From Candidatus Heimdallarchaeota archaeon (GTDB lineage Archaea; Asgardarchaeota; Heimdallarchaeia; Heimdallarchaeales; Heimdallarchaeaceae), in assembly GCA_030603365.1 (NCBI GenBank), contig JAUVXV010000006.1, positions 110,306 through 174,305 of the forward strand: a stretch of DNA of 64,000 nucleotides, in the 5' to 3' direction. Under the pieces are notes generated by a model. The model was not told the origin of the DNA, searched no databases, and saw only the letters and a program-made list of their open reading frames with translations. The stretch's first letter is position 1. Each line of letters starts with the position of its first letter. Made by a program: the position numbers and the translations under genes. Below, in pieces: positions 16,407 to 44,521 of the stretch.

Positions 16407-17876
16407 TCATAATCCTCTTAATCTTGCATGGATGTAGTCATCTTTTTCATTGACTGAATAAAGAAATTCAGCTCTACCTTTTTCTGTTTGTTTTATATTT
16501 ACTAAATTTTTCCTATTTAGATCTGCAAGTGGTTTTGGAGGTTTTCTCTTCAGTTCATTTTCAGTAATTAAATTCTGATTTATTCTTTTTTGTATCAGCC
16601 ATTTTTTAATTTCAATTCGAATTCCGTATGCACTCATAGAACCTAAAGGTTTTGGAGTTTGTAGCTTTAAACCAGATATTCCTTTATTAACAACATCTTC
16701 TTTATATTTATCAAGAAGAAAATCAAGAATAACCTTTTCTTTTTGAGTTAAAATTGGTTCAGTAATTTGGTTTCTTTCTAAATCATAGTTCTTTCTTATT
16801 TTATTTATAATAGTATTTCCGCGTGACAGAAACATTACCTGTTCTCTTAGTTCCCAAGTTTTAATCTTACTAATGATTATCTCTTGTATCTTATCACTGT
16901 ATTTTTGATAGGCTAATATTTCTGCTGATTTCTTAAATAATACCCTTTGATAATGCTTTGGTAAAATTTTCAAATTTTCGAGAGATGAATAATAAATGAC
17001 ATCGAACACAGCTAGTGAGTACTCAAAAAATTCGAACTTTTTTTCAATCGGTTTTTCATTAATTTCTTCCTTATTCAAAATGTCTATCGTTCTATCTGCT
17101 AAAACACGTAACATGAAAATAAGATTAATAGCATGTTTTATCCTTTCAAGGAATAATTTACTGTAGTTCTTCTCACGAATTAATAGAATTTTATTAAAAT
17201 CCAGAAAAACTATATTTACATCATTTATTTTGATTTTTTTCTTGTTTCTTAAATCAAAATTAAGTTTCTTTAGATTTTTAGAATTTACTTCAATCATAGT
17301 ATGAGTATTTGATTCCATAACATGAAACTTACTAAAATCAGTGAAAACAGCTGATAAAATATCCATTTTTTCTGAAGTTTTTTCTCTGTTGCAAATTTTT
17401 GCGATTTTATCTAACTTTTCTTGTATCTTTTTTGTTTCAGTATTTACTTCTAGTGATACTTTTTTTGTTATAGTTCCAATAAGAGAAGGAAAAATCTCAA
17501 CTCGTTTTCTAGGTTTCAATAATTCTAAGTCATTTTCATTAATAATCCATTTAATATAGTTAGAAACAAAAGCAATAAGTGGTCGAATTGGTTCTTTGTC
17601 ACAAATATAACCTCTTGTATTTCTATAATAATTGTATGATTCAGTTGTTAACCCAATTTTGACTTTCCCCATCTTAGGAACGAAAAAATCGTGATTTTTA
17701 TCTTTATAATTATCTTCTTTTGTTTTGTTTTTCTTTGCAAAATAAAGTTGTTCAAGTTTTTGGCAGAACTTTTCACTGGTTTTAAGAAACTCTAGAGGTT
17801 TTCTAACATTTTCTTCATAAATTATCTCTAATAATGGAACAAAAAAACTGAAAGTCAAATCAATTTTATTTTTCAT
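16407..17876 (-). CDS. Hypothetical protein with probable C-terminal winged helix
   Basis: LTQKEKVILDFL...LADLNRKNLV...GRAEFLYSVN; ATGA overlap with the upstream regulator. Confidence 0.6.
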   Translation of the reverse strand: MKNKIDLTFSFFVPLLEIIYEENVRKPLEFLKTSEKFCQKLEQLYFAKKNKTKEDNYKDKNHDFFVPKMGKVKIGLTTESYNYYRNTRGYICDKEPIRPLIAFVSNYIKWIINENDLELLKPRKRVEIFPSLIGTITKKVSLEVNTETKKIQEKLDKIAKICNREKTSEKMDILSAVFTDFSKFHVMESNTHTMIEVNSKNLKKLNFDLRNKKKIKINDVNIVFLDFNKILLIREKNYSKLFLERIKHAINLIFMLRVLADRTIDILNKEEINEKPIEKKFEFFEYSLAVFDVIYYSSLENLKILPKHYQRVLFKKSAEILAYQKYSDKIQEIIISKIKTWELREQVMFLSRGNTIINKIRKNYDLERNQITEPILTQKEKVILDFLLDKYKEDVVNKGISGLKLQTPKPLGSMSAYGIRIEIKKWLIQKRINQNLITENELKRKPPKPLADLNRKNLVNIKQTEKGRAEFLYSVNEKDDYIHARLRGL

Positions 17877-19363
17877 TCTCTATCACCCAGAATATCATTT
17901 GAGTTATATTTCCACTCTTGGAATACTGTTTCATATCTTTCTGTAGGTAACTTCCATCTTCTACTATACATCTGATTGATAACAAACATTTCCTTTACAT
18001 CTTTTTTGAAAAACATATTAAACAGGCTCATACAATCAAATATCATTTCGGTTGGAATCCTTACAATAAAATGCAATCCTTGATCTGTCTCATTAACATA
18101 CTTTTGGCTATACAATTCTGGAAAAATTGACAACTGTTTATGAATTGTTAGCTGTTCTGAAGGATCTTTTGATAGAAACAGTACTAGATTTGATAAACCA
18201 AAAACATAGTTTGGATTGATTTTTGATCTGAAGTATTGATGTTTTTGTAAATTTTCAACTTGTTTTCGTGCTTCTTTCTCACTTATTCCAAAGTCATTTT
18301 TTATGGCATTTATTGACATTTCGTTTTTCATCAGCATATGATTGAGAATTTCTATTCCTGTTTTATGCAGATTCAAGACATGTTCCTGATTTTCCTTAAA
18401 TTCAGGAACAATAATTGGTAGATTCTTACTATCACTCAATTCTTCCCAGTCTAGAGCTGATGCAATCTTATAGTATGGTAAATCCCATTTTCCGTATCTA
18501 TAGTCATAATTGGCAAAATTGAACGACTTCAACCTGCTGTTCATTTCAAATTTGAATATATTGGAAGAAACAATTTCATTTCTCTCGTTAATAATATCAC
18601 ATAATTTCTGTAAATCATTCTTAACTTGATTATTATCGGGAGTTATATAATTGATCATCACTGATTGTGAATTAGAGTAACTAGTATAAATAGAATGCAA
18701 AAATGAACTATCTGGTAGTTCCTTGAAGAAGTCAATCTTAGAGGATAAGGGAACATTATAGACAATACCATAAATAGCTAAATTCAGTACTGAATAGTTC
18801 AGAGATAAACCTGTATAAATGAGCTGTCGTTCCCTTAATTTCCTTTTATATTTTGAGAGGTTTGATGAATCCATTTTTATCTTATCTAACAATTCATTAT
18901 TGCTCATTGTCTGTTCCTTAAGTATGACCTGAAAAACTTCAAATTCCTTTGTATTAAACTTGGGCATAATTTTGGAGCGATAATCAAAGAATATTTGTAG
19001 AAAAGTATTCCAGGATAGTGGGATTTTCTTCTTTTTGAAATAATCTAAAATATTAAAAAAGTGTTTTGATGATTCATCGGAACAACAAAAATTTAGATAA
19101 GAGAAAGGAACTATATAACTGAAATTCTCAAATTTAATTGTTTTTCGATTCTTTGACCAAAAACTGTACCATTCATCGAATTTCTGCTTCTTCTTTGTTA
19201 ATTTAGTTCGAATATAGAAGCAAATTATATCCCATTCAGGTGAATCTAATCTAGCTTCATATTTAATAACTAATCTTTCAAAATCTTTGAAAAGATCCTG
19301 CAGAATTTCTTCTGCTAGTTCCATTCTTTTCTTCTGTTCTGGATTCTGAATGAAAGTCATCAA
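17873..19363 (-). CDS. Tandem wHTH + Lrp/AsnC-like transcriptional regulator
   Basis: Two HTH units (MSNNELLDKIKMDSSNLSKYKRKLRER; MSINAIKNDFGISEKEARKQVENL), each followed by an NY..L/FGL linker and a ferredoxin-like block. Confidence 0.7.
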   Translation of the reverse strand: MMTFIQNPEQKKRMELAEEILQDLFKDFERLVIKYEARLDSPEWDIICFYIRTKLTKKKQKFDEWYSFWSKNRKTIKFENFSYIVPFSYLNFCCSDESSKHFFNILDYFKKKKIPLSWNTFLQIFFDYRSKIMPKFNTKEFEVFQVILKEQTMSNNELLDKIKMDSSNLSKYKRKLRERQLIYTGLSLNYSVLNLAIYGIVYNVPLSSKIDFFKELPDSSFLHSIYTSYSNSQSVMINYITPDNNQVKNDLQKLCDIINERNEIVSSNIFKFEMNSRLKSFNFANYDYRYGKWDLPYYKIASALDWEELSDSKNLPIIVPEFKENQEHVLNLHKTGIEILNHMLMKNEMSINAIKNDFGISEKEARKQVENLQKHQYFRSKINPNYVFGLSNLVLFLSKDPSEQLTIHKQLSIFPELYSQKYVNETDQGLHFIVRIPTEMIFDCMSLFNMFFKKDVKEMFVINQMYSRRWKLPTERYETVFQEWKYNSNDILGDRE

Positions 19364-19534
19364 TTCTTAAATTTATTAGGTTTATTAATCTCTTTTGTTT
19401 GATTGTTAAGATTCATTAAAGTATCGGGTAAAATTACCCAATAGTTATTTTCTAATTTTAAGCGCTGAAACCTAGTAATTTTACACTTTTAACCTCTTTG
19501 TCTGCAGAAATATAGCTCATACTATCGGACGCGA

Positions 19535-19773
19535 ATGTTAAACCAAGGAGGTGAAAAGGAAAATGAAAGGACCAATAGAATTTCCACCAGACGACCCAGA
19601 ACCCTGGCCTCCATAAGGTCAGGTGATAGGGACAAGAGAGGAGCATTAAATCTCCTCTTAGTTCCTAGGAGATATACGAATATTCTGGGAATACTCGCGT
19701 GTTCCCTTGAATCGTAAAACACAGGAACTTTCCCAAGATAACTAAATCTAACCCTATTTATTTCTTTTTTCTT
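19535..19773 (+). ncRNA. Putative structured small transcript containing a 17-aa sORF
   Basis: GC-richer patch with stems TAGGGAC..AGAGGAG/CTCCTCT..GTTCCTA (19627-19667) and GGGAATAC-TCGC-GTGTTCCC (19687-19706), ending in a T-tract at 19761-19774. The ends are estimated. Confidence 0.45.
19563..19616 (+). CDS. Small Pro-rich peptide MKGPIEFPPDDPEPWPP
   Basis: Perfect RBS GGAGGTGA at 19547-19554, 8 nt before the ATG; below the ORF-track size cutoff. Confidence 0.55.
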   Translation: MKGPIEFPPDDPEPWPP

Positions 19774-19784
19774 TGTAGTGTAAG

Positions 19785-19813
19785 ATGGTGAATTTTCCAA
19801 TCTTTCCTACCAT
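19785..19813 (+). promoter_or_regulatory. Island dyad site 5 (ATGGT-N19-ACCAT + TTTGAGAC)
   Basis: TTTAAAAA begins at 19834 (+21). Confidence 0.75.
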
Positions 19814-19880
19814 TTTGAGACTTTTTTTTTAGCTTTAAAAATACTTGAGTATATCTTTGTATTAGTTTGGATCTGATAAA

Positions 19881-20189
19881 ATGGACAAGATATTTCAATT
19901 CAAATGTCTCGAATGTGAATTAGATTTCAAACTAAGGATAGGAGCGGGAGGGAGTTCCAATCTTCCTAAAGTATATTTTTACTGCGAAAGATGTAAAATC
20001 ATAACATTGGAACATAAGTGTGAGAATTGTAAAAGACCCCTGAGAAGAATAATTTATCCTCTCAAGGAAAATATACTTGAATTTTATGAAGAAAATGGAG
20101 AAATCAAAGCTCCATGCCCTCATTGTCATTCAATCTACACGATCCTTATTCCTTTAGACAAGTGGATAACGGACTTTCAACTATGGTAA
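19881..20189 (+). CDS. Small multi-CxxC zinc-finger protein (paralogue 1)
   Basis: CLEC, CERC, CENC, CPHC; paralogous to 31539 and 20342. Confidence 0.8.
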   Translation: MDKIFQFKCLECELDFKLRIGAGGSSNLPKVYFYCERCKIITLEHKCENCKRPLRRIIYPLKENILEFYEENGEIKAPCPHCHSIYTILIPLDKWITDFQLW

Positions 20190-20689: not shown

Positions 20690-20718
20690 ATGGTATTATT
20701 CTTTCTATTTTTTACAAG
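20690..20718 (+). promoter_or_regulatory. Island dyad site 7 (ATGGT-N19-ACAAG + ATTGAGAC)
   Basis: TTTTTATT at ~20740. Confidence 0.7.
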
Positions 20719-20789
20719 ATTGAGACTTTTTGACAATGATTTTTATTCTGGGGGCTAAATTCAATTAGTTTCTTAAATTAGAGAGGAAA

Positions 20790-29931: not shown

Positions 29932-31417
29932 CTAGATTTCATTTCCTAAGATATCAGCTGAATCATATTTCCATTCTTGGAATACTGTTTCATATCTCTC
30001 TGTTGGTAATAGCCATCTTCTACTATACATTTGATTGATAACAAACATCTCCTTTACTTCTTTTTGGAAATATTTATTGAACAAGCTCATACTATCAAAA
30101 ATCATCTCATTGGGAATTCTAATTATAAATTGTAATCCTTCCTCTTCTTCAGAGATGTATTTCTGACTATACAATTCTGGGAATACAGACAACTGTTTGT
30201 GCAATTGCATCTGTTCTGCAGGATCTCTTGAAAGAAAGAGTACTAGGTTTGATAATCCAAAAACATAGTTGGGATTAGTACGGGTTTTGAAATAGTTCAA
30301 CTTACGAAAATTTTCTACTTGCTTTCTCGCTTCTTTTTCACTTATACCAAGATCGTTTTTTATTGCACTTATTGACAACTTATTTTTTAGAAGTATATTA
30401 TTGAGTATCTCAATCCCAGTCTTATGCAAGTTTAGAATTTTTTCCTTTACCTCATGAAACTCTGATAAGATGAAGGGGATTTTCTTATTATCTCTAGCTT
30501 TCGTTGAGGAGATAGCTGAGGATATTTTATAGAAGGGTAAATCCCATTTTCCTAAACGATAATCATAATAAGAGAAATTGAATGATTTTAACCGTGATAG
30601 CATGTCAAATTGATAAAAATTTGAAGAAATTAGAGTGTGTTTATCTTCTAAATCTTGTTTAAGTTTTCGCAAATCTTCTTTTACTTGAGGATTATCAGGA
30701 GTCACATAATTTACCATTACCTATTGTGAGTTAGAATAACTTGTATAAATAGAATGTAGGAATGCACTCTCTGGCAATTCCTTAAAGAAATCTAGTTTGG
30801 AATCCAAAGCAACAGTAAATACCAGACCATAGATGGCTAAATTTAAAGCAGAGTAATTGAGAGAGTCCTTCAAAAATGAGAGTTCGTTCCAGTAACCGTC
30901 TCTTATATTTTGAAAGATTGGATGGATCCATCGAGAGTTTTTCTAATAGTGTTTTGTTATCCATTGTCTGCTCTTTGAGGATTGTTTCAAAGACAAGAAA
31001 TTCATTCTTATTGAATTTGGGCATAATCTTAGATCTATAGTCAAAAAATATCTGTAAGTAAATATCCCAAGAGAGTTTAAGATTAGCATTTGAAAAATAT
31101 TCTAGAATATCTAGAAGATAGGAAGAAGATTCATCAGAACTATGAAGGTTATAGTAAGTAGAAGGAACTAGATAACTGAAATTCTCGAATATAATGGATT
31201 TTCTATTAGTAGACCAAAAAATATTCTAGTCATCAAATTGTTTGTTAGTTCTAGCTAACTTTGTTCTAATATAAAAACAGATAATGTCCCATGCAGGAGT
31301 GTCTAACTTAGCTTCAAAGGTTACCACTAATTGCTCAAAATCAGAGTAGAGCTCTTGAAGAATTTTCTTAGCTAACTCCATTCTCTGCTTCTGCTCGGGA
31401 TTCTTAGTGAAAGGCAT
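29932..31417 (-). pseudogene. Pseudogenised paralogue of the 17873..19363 regulator
   Basis: Three track fragments align collinearly with the intact copy. There is TAG for Trp at 31226-31228, a frameshift near 30855 and TAG for Ser at 30721-30723. Confidence 0.85.
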
Positions 31418-31466
31418 CAGATTTAACATAGTTCTAACTTACATAATCTTTACCATATGACTGCAA

Positions 31467-31495
31467 ATGGTTTTTTTAGAAGTCATTATTACCAT
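31467..31495 (+). promoter_or_regulatory. Island dyad site 10 (ATGGT-N19-ACCAT + TTTTAGAC)
   Basis: Perfect arms; TTTAAATC at 31516 (+21). Confidence 0.75.
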
Positions 31496-31538
31496 TTTTA
31501 GACTTTTTTTGAACTTTTAAATCTATGGAATAAGAGAG

Positions 31539-31865
31539 GTGTTAGGAGAAAGAGAAATGGATGAGGTATATCTATTCAAATGCCTTGAATGTGAACTAGA
31601 ATTTAAGTTGAGGAAGGGAGTGGGAGGGAGCTCTACATCTCCAAGAACAAGATTCTATTGTCAAGAATATGGGAAGATATCAATAGAATCACAATGCAGG
31701 CAGTGTAGTCAATATTTGAAGAGGGTTATTTTTCCTTTAGAGGGAAATACAATAAAGCTGGAAGAAGCAGGAGAAGAATTAAAGGTTAAATGTCCTCATT
31801 GCTCTTCAAATCAAACTATTCTTACACTTTTAGATAAGTGGGTGATAGATTATCAAATGTGGTAA
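31539..31865 (+). CDS. Small multi-CxxC zinc-finger protein (paralogue 3)
   Basis: FKCLECELEFKLR...CPHC...LDKW..DYQMW matches 19881; one Cys is lost (CQEY). Likely start is ATG 31557. Confidence 0.8.
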   Translation: MLGEREMDEVYLFKCLECELEFKLRKGVGGSSTSPRTRFYCQEYGKISIESQCRQCSQYLKRVIFPLEGNTIKLEEAGEELKVKCPHCSSNQTILTLLDKWVIDYQMW

Positions 31866-31963: not shown

Positions 31964-32527
31964 ATGAATTATACCAATAAGGAACATAATGTAGCTCTGG
32001 AGAGAGAAAGACTAACCAGACTGATGGAAGAACGTGCTGTCATTGAAGAGATGATGAGGAATGATGAAGACCACACTGCTCTAAGAGAAGAGTTAGCTGA
32101 AACTGACAATAGAAAGGTTCTCAAGCCAATTCGTGGAGGAAGTAGTAAAACAAACTATACTGCAGATGGCAGATCTTATTTTGACAATAAGAGACTAAGT
32201 TTAGACACAACCTATCTTGGACCTAGATACGATGTCAGTGAAATGCTAGATTCAGAAAAACTAGTTCTTAGGAGAATGAAAGAACTTGATGAGAGAAAGA
32301 AATTGATGCAAACTCCAATAGCTGATGTTTACAAAGAGATAATCAAAGAAGACGCTCCCCCCAACAAATACTTTGCAATCAGAAAAATGGGGGAGTTTCT
32401 AGAAGAGGAGGAATTCACAGCAGAAGAAATTGCTTTGATGAGGACACTGATGAAAAGGATAGTTAAGAAGCATAGGGGGTCAAGAGAAGAGTTACTATTG
32501 TCGCTGTATATAGAAGAAAAACTATGA
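31964..32527 (+). CDS. Hypothetical helical protein (copy 2)
   Basis: Near-identical to 24826..25392. Confidence 0.8.
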   Translation: MNYTNKEHNVALERERLTRLMEERAVIEEMMRNDEDHTALREELAETDNRKVLKPIRGGSSKTNYTADGRSYFDNKRLSLDTTYLGPRYDVSEMLDSEKLVLRRMKELDERKKLMQTPIADVYKEIIKEDAPPNKYFAIRKMGEFLEEEEFTAEEIALMRTLMKRIVKKHRGSREELLLSLYIEEKL

Positions 32528-42490: not shown

Positions 42491-44521
42491 CTACACGTGT
42501 GTTGAGGGGAAGAGATCGTAAGGAAGGGATGTACCTTGGAGGGAAGCGATGTTTAATGCAGCATTCTTATGAGTATTAACTTGTTGACCGCATTTAGTAC
42601 AAGGAGCAACATCATGATGGTGTTTATCACGAGCAATTGTTCCTCCACAACCATAATGCTTGGAACTGGTATGATAAGGGGGAACAGCTTCTAATTCCAC
42701 ATCAAAACCTAACTCTAGAGAAGCTAACCAGACAGCTTTCTTGTAAATGTACAAACTGTCTGGCATGGTGTAAATAGCTTTAGCTAACGCTCCTTTAGTA
42801 CCTGCAGGGTCAGTAGTTAGTTCTTCAATCTTTAGAGTTTGACACTGCTTCTTCACCATTACTGCAGCTAAGAAGTGTGGGAGAAGACGGGTGATCTCAC
42901 GGAGGAGACGGTGACGACGTCTATACACTCGGTTGAGCTCACCTTTGAGCTTGCAACTACCAAGATTGTCGTAAGTTTTACGTTTGCGAAGGTAACCACG
43001 ATTGAGCTCGTCTAGAACTTTCTTATCTAGACGTTTGTAACGCTTAGCTAGAAGCAGTAAGTCTGGGAGTAAAGGCACAGGGGTGTTAAACACCACCATA
43101 AACTCTCCCAAACGGTTGATATCTACACCTAGCACTTTCTTCCTCCCTCCTGGAATTGTGGGGAGATAACTGTGGAGAAGGGTAGAGGAGCGGAAACAGT
43201 TATGGGTGCCTTCTAGCACTACATCTACTCGAGGTTTGAACCTAGGAGCTCCTCCACTACTCACTTGGAAAACCTTAATTTCTGCACCGTTCTGGATATA
43301 TTCCACCACTTTTGGAGGAAACAGCACTTGAGCGGTGAGTCTCTTCTTTCCCATTTGTGGGAATCCTAAAGTGGTTCTTCCTTGCTTCTTTACTTGTCTG
43401 GTCAATTCGCTTGCATTCCCTTGTCGGGTGATAACATACTCTCTTTTCATTAACAATTTTATCGGTAATCTTCCTTGCTTTTTACGTTTAAATGGTAAGG
43501 GAACAAGCCTGTCTACAGGTAAACCTTGTAGTAACTGAGGGACACTCTGCATGAATTGGTCAAAGAGTGTGAAAACCACTATCTGCCTGACAGCAGAAAA
43601 GAGTTTTCGAGTAGGTTTGCCTATGATTTTGGCTAGTTCCTTGGATAATTTTTTGAGACTTTTCCAACGAGAGGATTGATAACTATTGATCCATGAGGTG
43701 AGGAAAGGTACAACGATCTGTTGTTCTTGTTTGAGGAGATGGAGTTTATTTAGAAATGCTTGTTGGTTCTTCGAGAGGGTAGGTAACTGTGCGAACGTGG
43801 TGGTTTGGTAAGCTAGAGTATCGTCGATTCCTTGCACAACATCTTGTTGGGTGTAAGTAGGTAAAGCTCCGTTATACACCAAACTGTTGGAGAAATAGTA
43901 AGCTCTTTTTTTCTTTCTACTATACGAATCCAGTTGCAGTCTAGAGTTTGCTAACAGATTAACAACGTACCTTCTTTGCAGCTTCCAGTATTTTCCCAAA
44001 CTGTTTTCAGTATAGGGTGAACGACCAAAAATTATCCACTCCACTAATTGTTGAGGGTTCTTCTGCAGAAAGTTTAACATCCCTTGCACTTTCTTTTCTT
44101 TATCTACTTTCCCTTTCACTGCTATCTGGAGCCAGTGGTAAGCACTTTCAGCTATGTTAGGATTCTTGCCTACCGCTTTCCCTACTTGACGCACAAAGAA
44201 CCGTTCTTTAGGATTAGCGCGATAGAGCTCAACTGCTTGCTTAACCACATCTTGGGTAAGGAGGTGGTGTTGTCTCTCTTCTAACCTTCGTATGCGTTGG
44301 TTGATTTCTTCTCGTTGGACGGGTGAGTCACACTTCAACGCCACCTGGTAACTCCTCATCACTGTATCTAGTACAATCGGATGAGAGATCTGGGAGGTGC
44401 TAGTTGCTTGTGTGCCCATCTGTTTCATAAATATAATGAGAAGATTGGTATTTAAACCCGGGAAAATCTCACTGGTTTGGTGGTGCTTTTCCTCTCCGTT
44501 GTCGGTGTAATCTCCCAGCAA
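42491..44521 (-). CDS. tnpB: Oversized TnpB/Cas12f-like RuvC protein
   Basis: RuvC-I LGVDIN, RuvC-II LKIEEL, VPPYHTSS, Zn finger HYGC..CTKC, RuvC-III NTHKNAALNI. Likely start is ATG 44428 or 44359. Confidence 0.8.
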   Translation of the reverse strand: MLGDYTDNGEEKHHQTSEIFPGLNTNLLIIFMKQMGTQATSTSQISHPIVLDTVMRSYQVALKCDSPVQREEINQRIRRLEERQHHLLTQDVVKQAVELYRANPKERFFVRQVGKAVGKNPNIAESAYHWLQIAVKGKVDKEKKVQGMLNFLQKNPQQLVEWIIFGRSPYTENSLGKYWKLQRRYVVNLLANSRLQLDSYSRKKKRAYYFSNSLVYNGALPTYTQQDVVQGIDDTLAYQTTTFAQLPTLSKNQQAFLNKLHLLKQEQQIVVPFLTSWINSYQSSRWKSLKKLSKELAKIIGKPTRKLFSAVRQIVVFTLFDQFMQSVPQLLQGLPVDRLVPLPFKRKKQGRLPIKLLMKREYVITRQGNASELTRQVKKQGRTTLGFPQMGKKRLTAQVLFPPKVVEYIQNGAEIKVFQVSSGGAPRFKPRVDVVLEGTHNCFRSSTLLHSYLPTIPGGRKKVLGVDINRLGEFMVVFNTPVPLLPDLLLLAKRYKRLDKKVLDELNRGYLRKRKTYDNLGSCKLKGELNRVYRRRHRLLREITRLLPHFLAAVMVKKQCQTLKIEELTTDPAGTKGALAKAIYTMPDSLYIYKKAVWLASLELGFDVELEAVPPYHTSSKHYGCGGTIARDKHHHDVAPCTKCGQQVNTHKNAALNIASLQGTSLPYDLFPSTHV

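Follow-up and report, generated by a model that had tools for sequence, protein, structure and literature searches.

A putative proline-rich micropeptide gene within a structured RNA, divergent from a predicted double Lrp/AsnC-type regulator of Heimdallarchaeota

Introduction

In the agr system of Staphylococcus aureus, the regulator operon and RNAIII, a dual-function RNA that also encodes delta-haemolysin, are transcribed divergently (promoters P2 and P3). The regulators of the Rgg/SHP and ComR/ComS systems possess TPR-type peptide pockets, and their hydrophobic peptides are exported and then re-imported. Other short open reading frames (ORFs) encode Pro-rich or arrest leader peptides which act in cis on the following gene, for example, mgtP of the Salmonella mgtCBR operon, TnaC and the upstream ORF uORF2 of human cytomegalovirus (hCMV); eRF1-type termination is the step at which Pro-Pro-stop arrest peptides, hCMV uORF2 among them, act. 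CreT RNAs that sequester tRNA are reportedly present in archaeal type I-B loci. To our knowledge, a genetic partner is known for very few micropeptides of archaea and has been described for none in the Asgard archaea, which among prokaryotes are most closely related to eukaryotes. Here, we analyze a stretch of 64,000 nucleotides (the window) from contig JAUVXV010000006.1 (assembly GCA_030603365.1, positions 110,306 to 174,305 of the forward strand) of Candidatus Heimdallarchaeota archaeon, in which a short Pro-rich ORF (sORF) lies within a structured RNA, divergent from a regulator gene.

In a review (PMC13361665), Rgg/SHP and ComR/ComS (XIP) are treated as streptococcal peptide-regulator pairs. 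CreT of the Pseudomonas aeruginosa CreTA system has been described as a "proline-codon toxin" made up of a Shine-Dalgarno (SD) sequence, a 4-codon mini-ORF often reading Pro-Pro-stop and a hairpin, and it tolerates synonymous proline codons (bioRxiv 10.64898/2026.06.02.729485). The locus studied here resembles agr/RNAIII in that a regulator operon and a structured RNA diverge from one short control region and in that the RNA combines a short ORF with a conserved folded domain, the C/U-rich boxes of which could pair with SD sequences. Unlike agr/RNAIII, however, the locus resides in an archaeon, its regulator is predicted to be of a double Lrp/AsnC type and not a LytTR response regulator, and the peptide is Pro/Asp-rich instead of being an amphipathic toxin; homology of sequence or fold is not seen.

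Results

Conservation of the sORF and Its Peptide

In the window, a full SD sequence, GGAGGTGA, is read at 19547-19554 of the plus strand, 8 nt upstream of the ATG of a 17-codon sORF (19563-19616, plus strand) which contains seven prolines and ends with Trp-Pro-Pro directly before the TAA (19614-19616). Ribosome-binding site, start and stop had already been proposed in a preliminary description of this DNA and are found again, with the SD lying one base to the left of the position implied there. The region is also set apart by its base composition, showing a GC content of 0.43-0.47 at 19500-19700 compared to 0.23-0.31 in the flanks.

At least 17 Heimdallarchaeota loci, representing three of the five genera of one family as well as metagenome contigs, bear an SD-led ORF of 15-24 codons; about 13 further regulator clusters stand outside this census. 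By BLAST against relatives, the block is recovered in five genomes of the same genus, each with an SD-led ORF of 15-18 codons encoding the core PDDPxPWP, and a degenerate DNA pattern for this core gives one match each in 6 of the 25 genomes of the genus, but none in 58 other genomes of the class and none in reversed controls. More distant relatives of the regulator (27-42% identity) are present in 20 of the 31 genomes of the family, and at nine loci of such distant regulators an SD-led sORF of 16-24 codons, rich in Pro, Asp and Glu, is found in the same place and orientation. Going far beyond chance, the unit of SD, ORF and hairpin recurs next to regulator homologues in related Heimdallarchaeota genomes, where the earlier description had suggested looking for it, with ribosome-binding site, ORF and stems kept and with compensatory changes in the stems. 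Scanning metagenomes with the DNA pattern yielded 38 stretches, only four of them true family members and one of these with a new peptide variant, while the corresponding scan with a regulator profile yielded no locus. The comparisons confirm that the predicted unit reaches well beyond the window.

The peptides of the 17 loci, assigned in part to groups A, B and C, align gap-free on a C-terminal core, P-[DN]-[DE]-P-x-[PF]-[WFLV]-P, with the stop following zero to two residues later. The conserved core comprises 8-9 residues, including two acidic positions, and in all 17 loci the stop is reached zero or one residue after a proline. The window and most members of groups A and B have Pro-Pro-stop, four loci from three species have Trp-Pro-stop, and three loci carry one more residue; the variant of genome G005 retains the core without any Pro-Pro pair. 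The distance from the Trp/Phe residue to the stop amounts to one to three residues, varying even between close relatives. The peptide is acidic, shows neither signal sequence nor hydrophobic stretch and is devoid of Cys, Ser and Thr. Further credible copies of the motif were not found in the same genome.

Of the variable sites, one, one and five fall on the first, second and third codon positions in group A, and one, none and six in group B. Indels within the sORF are frame-preserving, and the 17 loci have retained start, stop and frame as well as an SD spacing of 8-10 nt, the amino-acid core being common even to groups that are no longer alignable at the nucleotide level. Likewise, GGAGGTG or GAGGTGA is retained in nearly all of the 17 loci. 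The full 7-mer precedes just two of 1678 long ORFs of the host genome (3.65 Mb in 17 contigs); GGAGG is found ahead of 46 of them when taking the first ATG as start, and most genes of this organism seem to be leaderless or weakly SD-led. Proline accounts for 36% of the sORF codons compared to 3.6% genome-wide. As the proline codons used are the common ones and not rare, a function as rare-codon or rare-tRNA trap was ruled out. Judged from the substitution pattern, the ORF is selected as a protein. Other frames of the block, a 60-aa ORF at 19535-19717 and antisense ORFs of 62 and 92 aa, were dismissed as genes since they are not kept open in relatives.

Structure of the RNA

The 3' part of the sORF and the sequence downstream of it can be folded into a series of helices. 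Hairpin P1 (19603-19623, plus strand, as all RNA features given here) uses the Pro-Trp-Pro codons as 5' arm and has a loop that holds the stop codon. Covariation in P1 involves the third position of a proline codon, with C:G, U:A and U.G pairs alternating. Hairpin P2 (19629-19665) is formed by AGAGGAG and CUCCUCU (19637-19643 with 19652-19658) around an A-U-rich loop and is extended by GGGAC/GUUCC (19629-19633 with 19661-19665). Its stem is invariant within group A, and in groups B and C as well as in genome G014 it is replaced by other sequence which is still complementary, located at the same position after the stop and provided with an A/U-rich loop. Hairpin P3 (19676-19715; within this stretch, 19687-19694 pairs with 19699-19706) shows one compensatory pair and is enclosed by the long-range helix P4 (19660-19729) of the Alifold consensus, in which AGUUCCU at 19660-19666 pairs with AGGAACU at 19723-19729. 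An anti-SD-like box, CUUUCCC (19728-19734), closes this 3' domain and is paired with the SD by Alifold. The T-rich tract at 19757-19774 is likely the terminator of a small transcript; oligo-T terminators are established in archaea. Extended first hairpin, second hairpin at 19687-19706 and T-rich tract had been noted before and are all read in the sequence, and GGAAC (19724-19728) together with TTTCCC (19729-19734) could compete for the hairpin arms as had been proposed.

The 3' domain of groups A, B and C closes, just ahead of the T-tract, with CUUCC or a similar sequence, and the CUUCC-like box of all groups can pair either with the SD or with a purine box located just after the stop. In G014, as read by eye, a 9-bp closing helix joins the anti-SD-like box to a box immediately behind the stop. 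All loci have a T-tract about 60-160 nt past the stop (U-run scan). In P4 of metagenome locus L089, a G:C pair is replaced by A:U in a double change (G-to-A at 19661). The alternative partner of this position in the GGGAC arm (19629-33) is also a U in L089; however, the same U occurs in G016 and G020, so that it is not specific to L089 and represents weak evidence for two mutually exclusive folds.

For six group A sequences, 94.8% of the cells in the Alifold consensus are paired, compared to 34-52% when the partners are slid by one to three columns, and four consensus pairs show changes on both sides. Mean pairwise identity is higher in the 3' domain than in the sORF, with 0.82 versus 0.63 in group A and 0.94 versus 0.83 in group B. 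In the window, the plus strand of the block folds better than dinucleotide shuffles (z of -3.24, none of 200 shuffles being as good), in contrast to the unremarkable minus strand (z of -1.83). With few and closely related sequences compared, these values support but do not prove that the fold is selected as RNA. Parts of the ORF itself lie in helices, namely P1 in group A and a palindromic stretch of Pro-Glu-Phe-Trp codons in group B. Besides, the second Asp codon (19590-19598 region) is always GAC in group A, a minor codon accounting for 17% of Asp genome-wide. The hexamer GACCCA is invariant in this group, suggesting an RNA-level constraint inside the ORF, and Alifold pairs its CCC with GGG at 19629-31.

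None of the Rfam covariance models matched the window at the gathering score, and at E<=10 the only match within 19350-19900 was a spurious plant miRNA (E of 9.6). ARAGORN detected neither tRNA nor tmRNA, and C/D-box, K-turn and tRNA-like readings of the 3' domain were weighed by eye and dropped. A counterpart of the sORF/RNA unit was found neither in Rfam or Pfam nor in the literature. In two contig sets from cold-seep metatranscriptomes, searched at 80% likeness, the block was not covered and only DNA contigs of relatives were matched, a result which says nothing on expression.

Linkage to the Regulator

In the 17 loci, the sORF is always divergent from the regulator and located about 200 nt off its start. 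Constant neighbours are the regulator, a partner protein of about 489 aa and, somewhere in the module, a Zn-ribbon gene of about 100 aa. The gene behind the sORF, in contrast, differs: it encodes the Zn-ribbon protein in the window, a 901-aa protein in G016 and, in group B, either an aminotransferase or an Ig-domain protein, whereas in G027 (group C) the sORF is followed by cas6-cas8b-cas7-cas5-cas3-cas4 of a type I-B system with flanking CRISPR arrays. Groups A and B lie outside cas loci, the group B modules being located among metabolic genes. When 18 regulators are placed in a maximum-likelihood tree, groups A and B each form a monophyletic clade (100/100), whereas the sORF-bearing regulators of group C are placed on separate deep branches beside sORF-less ones, indicating that the pairing is old and has been accompanied by losses. 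Genome G013 harbours both a group A and a group C pair, i.e., regulator paralogues with different peptide variants. Near the distant regulator relatives of about 560-590 aa from other families of the class, no Pro-rich sORF was found. By this distribution, the predicted sORF unit is genetically coupled to the regulator and travels with it rather than with the downstream genes.

As had been pointed out previously, the block is missing from the pseudogenised second module of the window, the intergenic region at 31417-31557 lacking the sORF RNA. The second regulator copy (29932-31429) is broken into at least three pieces by internal TAG stops, and sORF RNA and palindrome (see below) are both missing there; the Zn-ribbon gene (31539-31865) and the gene for a 188-aa protein (31964-32527) located beside it are both intact. 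Three tandem regulator paralogues, one with an internal stop, are present in G026:C37:329-5042 (L037, L051, and L052), and none of them adjoins a Pro-rich sORF.

The Control Region

A 22-bp palindrome, TATCGGG-N8-CCCAATA, is located between the divergent genes (19422-19443) and represents a putative operator. Groups A and B, the regulators of which are only about 40% identical, share a palindrome of the type TATCGGG-N8-CCCGATA at -142 to -121 relative to the sORF start codon. The palindrome occurs once in the window and nowhere else in the whole genome, which suggests that the regulator directly targets only its own gene and the sORF RNA. From position, symmetry and conservation of the palindrome we infer that it is bound by the regulator.

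Closer to the sORF, an element comprising a BRE/TATA-like box, AGAAATATA, and a TATCGG half-site (19523-19528) spans 19505-19531 of the plus strand and may represent either the promoter or the 5' untranslated region of the sORF RNA. The box is conserved in six group A sequences, imperfectly in G013, and the half-site (at -40) in five of six, L089 reading AATCGG. A second TATA-like box is located at 19456-19470. The downstream Zn-ribbon gene (19881-20189) is preceded by a separate promoter-like motif, TACCATTTTGAGACTTTTT plus TATA (19808-19848, plus strand), which is repeated at 31490-31525 and 20713-20745 and, in weaker form, at 822-860; where examined, the gene following the sORF has a promoter-like motif of its own. 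In G012 and G005, the TACCATTT..GACTTTTT motif of the Zn-ribbon genes stands before the sORF itself. Ahead of the two Zn-ribbon genes, the 901-aa gene and, in weaker form, the gene at 875, TACCATTT-N-AGACTTTTT stands together with a TATA-like box downstream of it, good copies being confined to this region of the genome.

Regulator and Partner Protein

The regulator of about 495 aa (17873-19360, minus strand) is predicted to consist of an N-terminal helical/winged-helix domain followed by two tandem modules, each combining a winged helix-turn-helix (wHTH) with a RAM-like domain. Its AlphaFold model (pLDDT 88, pTM 0.87) matches best the fused NirDL structure 4ch7 in Foldseek (E of 2e-7), followed by many Lrp/AsnC regulators at a probability of 1.0. 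In the model, the wHTH followed by a beta-alpha-beta-beta-alpha-beta RAM domain that defines Lrp/AsnC proteins is thus present as a tandem double fold. Pfam gives only sub-threshold wHTH matches, and PADLOC indicates weak wHTH similarity to CasR/Csa3-type models (E of ~1e-4). The family comprises only 24 clusters among 5.8 billion, all from Heimdallarchaeota where named.

The partner gene (16407-17876, minus strand), overlapping the regulator stop by 4 nt, encodes about 489 aa with an orphan N-terminal part of about 365 aa and a C-terminal winged helix; in groups A, B and C alike, it is found together with the regulator. In the model (pLDDT 77), residues ~370-489 alone match known folds, i.e., ORC/Cdc6 and MarR winged helices (VIA search, Z of 7-8). 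The partner gave no Foldseek match and no match to Pfam or PADLOC, and a PqqD-like RiPP recognition element (RRE; RiPP, ribosomally synthesized and post-translationally modified peptide) is not among the structural matches.

In the window, neither cas genes nor a CRISPR array are present. At 42491-44521 (minus strand), a 676-aa ORF with a C-terminal Cas12f/TnpB-type TNB domain (Pfam, E of 9e-6) possibly encodes a TnpB/Fanzor-like nuclease. In locus L057 (G027:C1), a solitary degenerate CRISPR repeat (26/29 match to the array repeat) is located in the cas3-cas4 intergenic region at about 18000 and could be a CreA-like or mini-array element.

Discussion

The comparison of related genomes characterizes the sORF unit as an independent gene for a selected peptide, as far as can be judged from sequence, and the features of a dual-function small RNA, an sORF together with an RNA domain that is apparently under structural selection, are both present. 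We tentatively favour, at somewhat less than an even chance, a stand-alone dual-function small RNA under the control of the regulator, the micropeptide of which acts on a protein of the module, while the 3' domain serves as a gate on how the message is translated and how stable it is. The region from about 19497 to 19775 would then be a small gene with its own promoter, a very strong ribosome-binding site, the 17-codon ORF, a conserved and folded 3' domain of about 120 nt and an oligo-T terminator, and it would serve as the dedicated divergent partner of the Heimdallarchaeal double Lrp/AsnC-type regulator and its winged-helix companion. By binding the palindrome, the regulator would control its own operon as well as the sORF RNA. 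The acidic PxxPxPxP-type micropeptide would be the product that matters, acting in trans on the regulator, its partner or the Zn-ribbon protein and closing a feedback loop. Offering its CUCCUC and CUUCC boxes to the SD, the 3' domain would gate translation and stability, and the terminating ribosome would melt the helices which start at or just after the stop codon. The core retained without Pro-Pro in the G005 variant fits a binding motif better than polyproline stalling.

Several observations weigh against this proposal. An RNA that jams translation would be built in the same way, with an exceptionally strong SD, hairpins and a Pro-rich ORF whose end is, or adjoins, Pro-stop. The conservation of the 3' domain exceeds what the tail of a message would need, so that the RNA may be the main effector. 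No known peptide-binding domain and no TPR or RRNPP-type fold is recognizable in the regulator model, and RAM domains of Lrp/AsnC proteins bind small molecules. Moreover, about one third of the regulator loci have no sORF. In the preliminary description, a peptide ligand for the adjacent regulator or a translation-sensing RNA switch had been envisaged. Of this idea, the tie to the regulator has been strengthened by a putative peptide gene residing in a structured RNA, a pairing conserved across deep branches, substitutions of the coding type and a unique palindrome. The ligand-or-switch part, in contrast, did not fare as well, considering the regulator model just mentioned, the variant lacking Pro-Pro and the varying downstream genes with their own promoter.

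Alternatively, it might be the act of translating the Pro-rich ORF that matters and not the free peptide, with a pause at the C-terminal core or at the Pro-stop holding the post-stop helices open. Refolding of the 3' domain could then report translation capacity (aIF5A, Pro-tRNA), or the RNA could be, by analogy with CreT, a ribosome-jamming toxin that is kept off by the adjacent regulator, the module being a defence or addiction switch. Such a translation-arrest element is the main rival and possible, though less likely than not. It would be in line with the retention of an SD that is so rare in this genome, with an ORF invariably finishing at or next to a proline, with stop codons in the P1 loop or directly before the closing helix and with the alternative pairings, including the G-to-A change in L089 matched by U at both partners (one U being shared with other genomes). 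The group C copies, which have the regulator on one side and a type I-B cas operon accompanied by CRISPR arrays on the other, could be read in the same way, and the published CreT likewise needs SD, Pro-Pro-stop mini-ORF and hairpin. However, the G005 variant without Pro-Pro and the variable distance between the Trp/Phe residue and the stop weigh against stalling, a core of this length with two acidic positions exceeds what Pro-Pro-stop requires, and the common proline codons do not make a rare-tRNA trap. A CreA-like degenerate repeat was not found beside the sORF in the G027 cas locus, the window lacks cas genes and array altogether, and the group B modules are surrounded by metabolic genes. 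With the arrest leader peptides, the unit shares a short ORF with prolines near the stop, followed by alternatively pairing RNA and a U-tract, but its constant neighbour is the divergent regulator, and T-tract, separate promoter and a downstream gene differing between loci render classical attenuation in cis unlikely. A leader-peptide attenuator would be placed on the transcript of one regulated downstream operon, which is not the arrangement predicted here.

That the peptide is an exported signal, re-sensed by the regulator in a quorum-sensing or arbitrium-like manner, or a RiPP precursor tailored by the 489-aa neighbour is very unlikely. The divergent arrangement of regulator and small peptide gene, as in shp/rgg and comS/comR, and the coexistence of paralogous pairs with differing variants in G013 would agree with it. 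However, an acidic peptide without signal sequence, hydrophobic stretch, Cys, Ser and Thr is a poor candidate for secretion or modification, and no transporter, peptidase, radical-SAM protein, P450 or cyclase is a constant neighbour. The regulator model, as stated, does not have an RRNPP-type peptide-binding fold, and the recognizable part of the partner is an ORC/MarR-type winged helix only, with no PqqD-like RRE among the matches. A purely non-coding structured RNA, in which the ORF is a by-product of RNA sequence constraints, might be considered because the 3' domain is the most conserved part and because stretches of the ORF lie in helices (P1 in group A, the codon palindrome in group B), but this is extremely improbable in view of start, SD spacing, frame and stop being kept through indels in all 17 loci, of changes clustering at third codon positions and of an amino-acid core common to groups with unalignable nucleotides.

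Returning to the regulator-controlled dual-function RNA, its most specific form would be that the acidic PxxPxPxP micropeptide of about 15 aa, produced from a translation-gated small RNA, is the cognate ligand or anti-factor of the double Lrp regulator and specific to Asgard archaea. We consider this unlikely; if true, however, bacterial peptide-regulator pairs would for the first time have a counterpart in archaea, one employing a proline-rich short linear motif of the kind read by eukaryotic adaptor domains and with some copies wired to CRISPR-Cas or defence loci. In any case, the module offers a testable circuit with a unique putative operator, a regulator of known (modelled) fold, a peptide core of 8-9 residues and a conserved RNA domain. 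Binding of the peptide to a module protein would establish a new regulatory principle in archaea, while, if the ORF stalls ribosomes, the recently described "proline-codon" RNA toxins would gain members in archaea, hosts with eRF1-type termination, and a mode of control through a protein repressor. Genes of this class are overlooked by gene callers and are not represented in Rfam or Pfam.

Compared with Lrp/AsnC proteins, also termed feast/famine regulatory proteins (FFRP), and with NirDL/AhbAB, the regulator is alike in its predicted wHTH and RAM-like alpha-beta sandwich, which occur twice per chain as in NirDL, but differs by an extra N-terminal domain of about 130 aa and by Pfam HMM scores below the cut-offs. 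With Rgg/SHP and ComR/ComS, the locus has in common that a peptide gene of about 17-24 codons adjoins, and often diverges from, the regulator gene and that paralogous pairs with matched variants exist. The combination of HTH and TPR-like domain and the exported or processed peptide of RRNPP/Rgg-SHP systems are not apparent, however; instead, an Lrp/AsnC-like fold and an acidic Pro-rich peptide are predicted, without linked export machinery and without homology. From CreTA, a strong SD, a mini-ORF with proline at or next to its end, the tolerance of synonymous proline codons and a downstream hairpin are all familiar, and some sORF copies likewise reside in type I-B cas loci. In contrast to CreT, the sORF comprises 15-24 codons with a conserved core and not four codons, one variant lacks Pro-Pro, and a CreA or degenerate repeat partner adjacent in a cas locus is not found, most copies being located outside cas loci. 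Moreover, the sORF is probably controlled by a protein regulator, and its 3' domain goes far beyond a stabilising hairpin in complexity. The module of regulator, small RNA and micropeptide is previously undescribed and, being without homologue in curated libraries, its sORF/RNA unit is a lineage-restricted addition to the theme of a regulator paired with a small peptide or small RNA.

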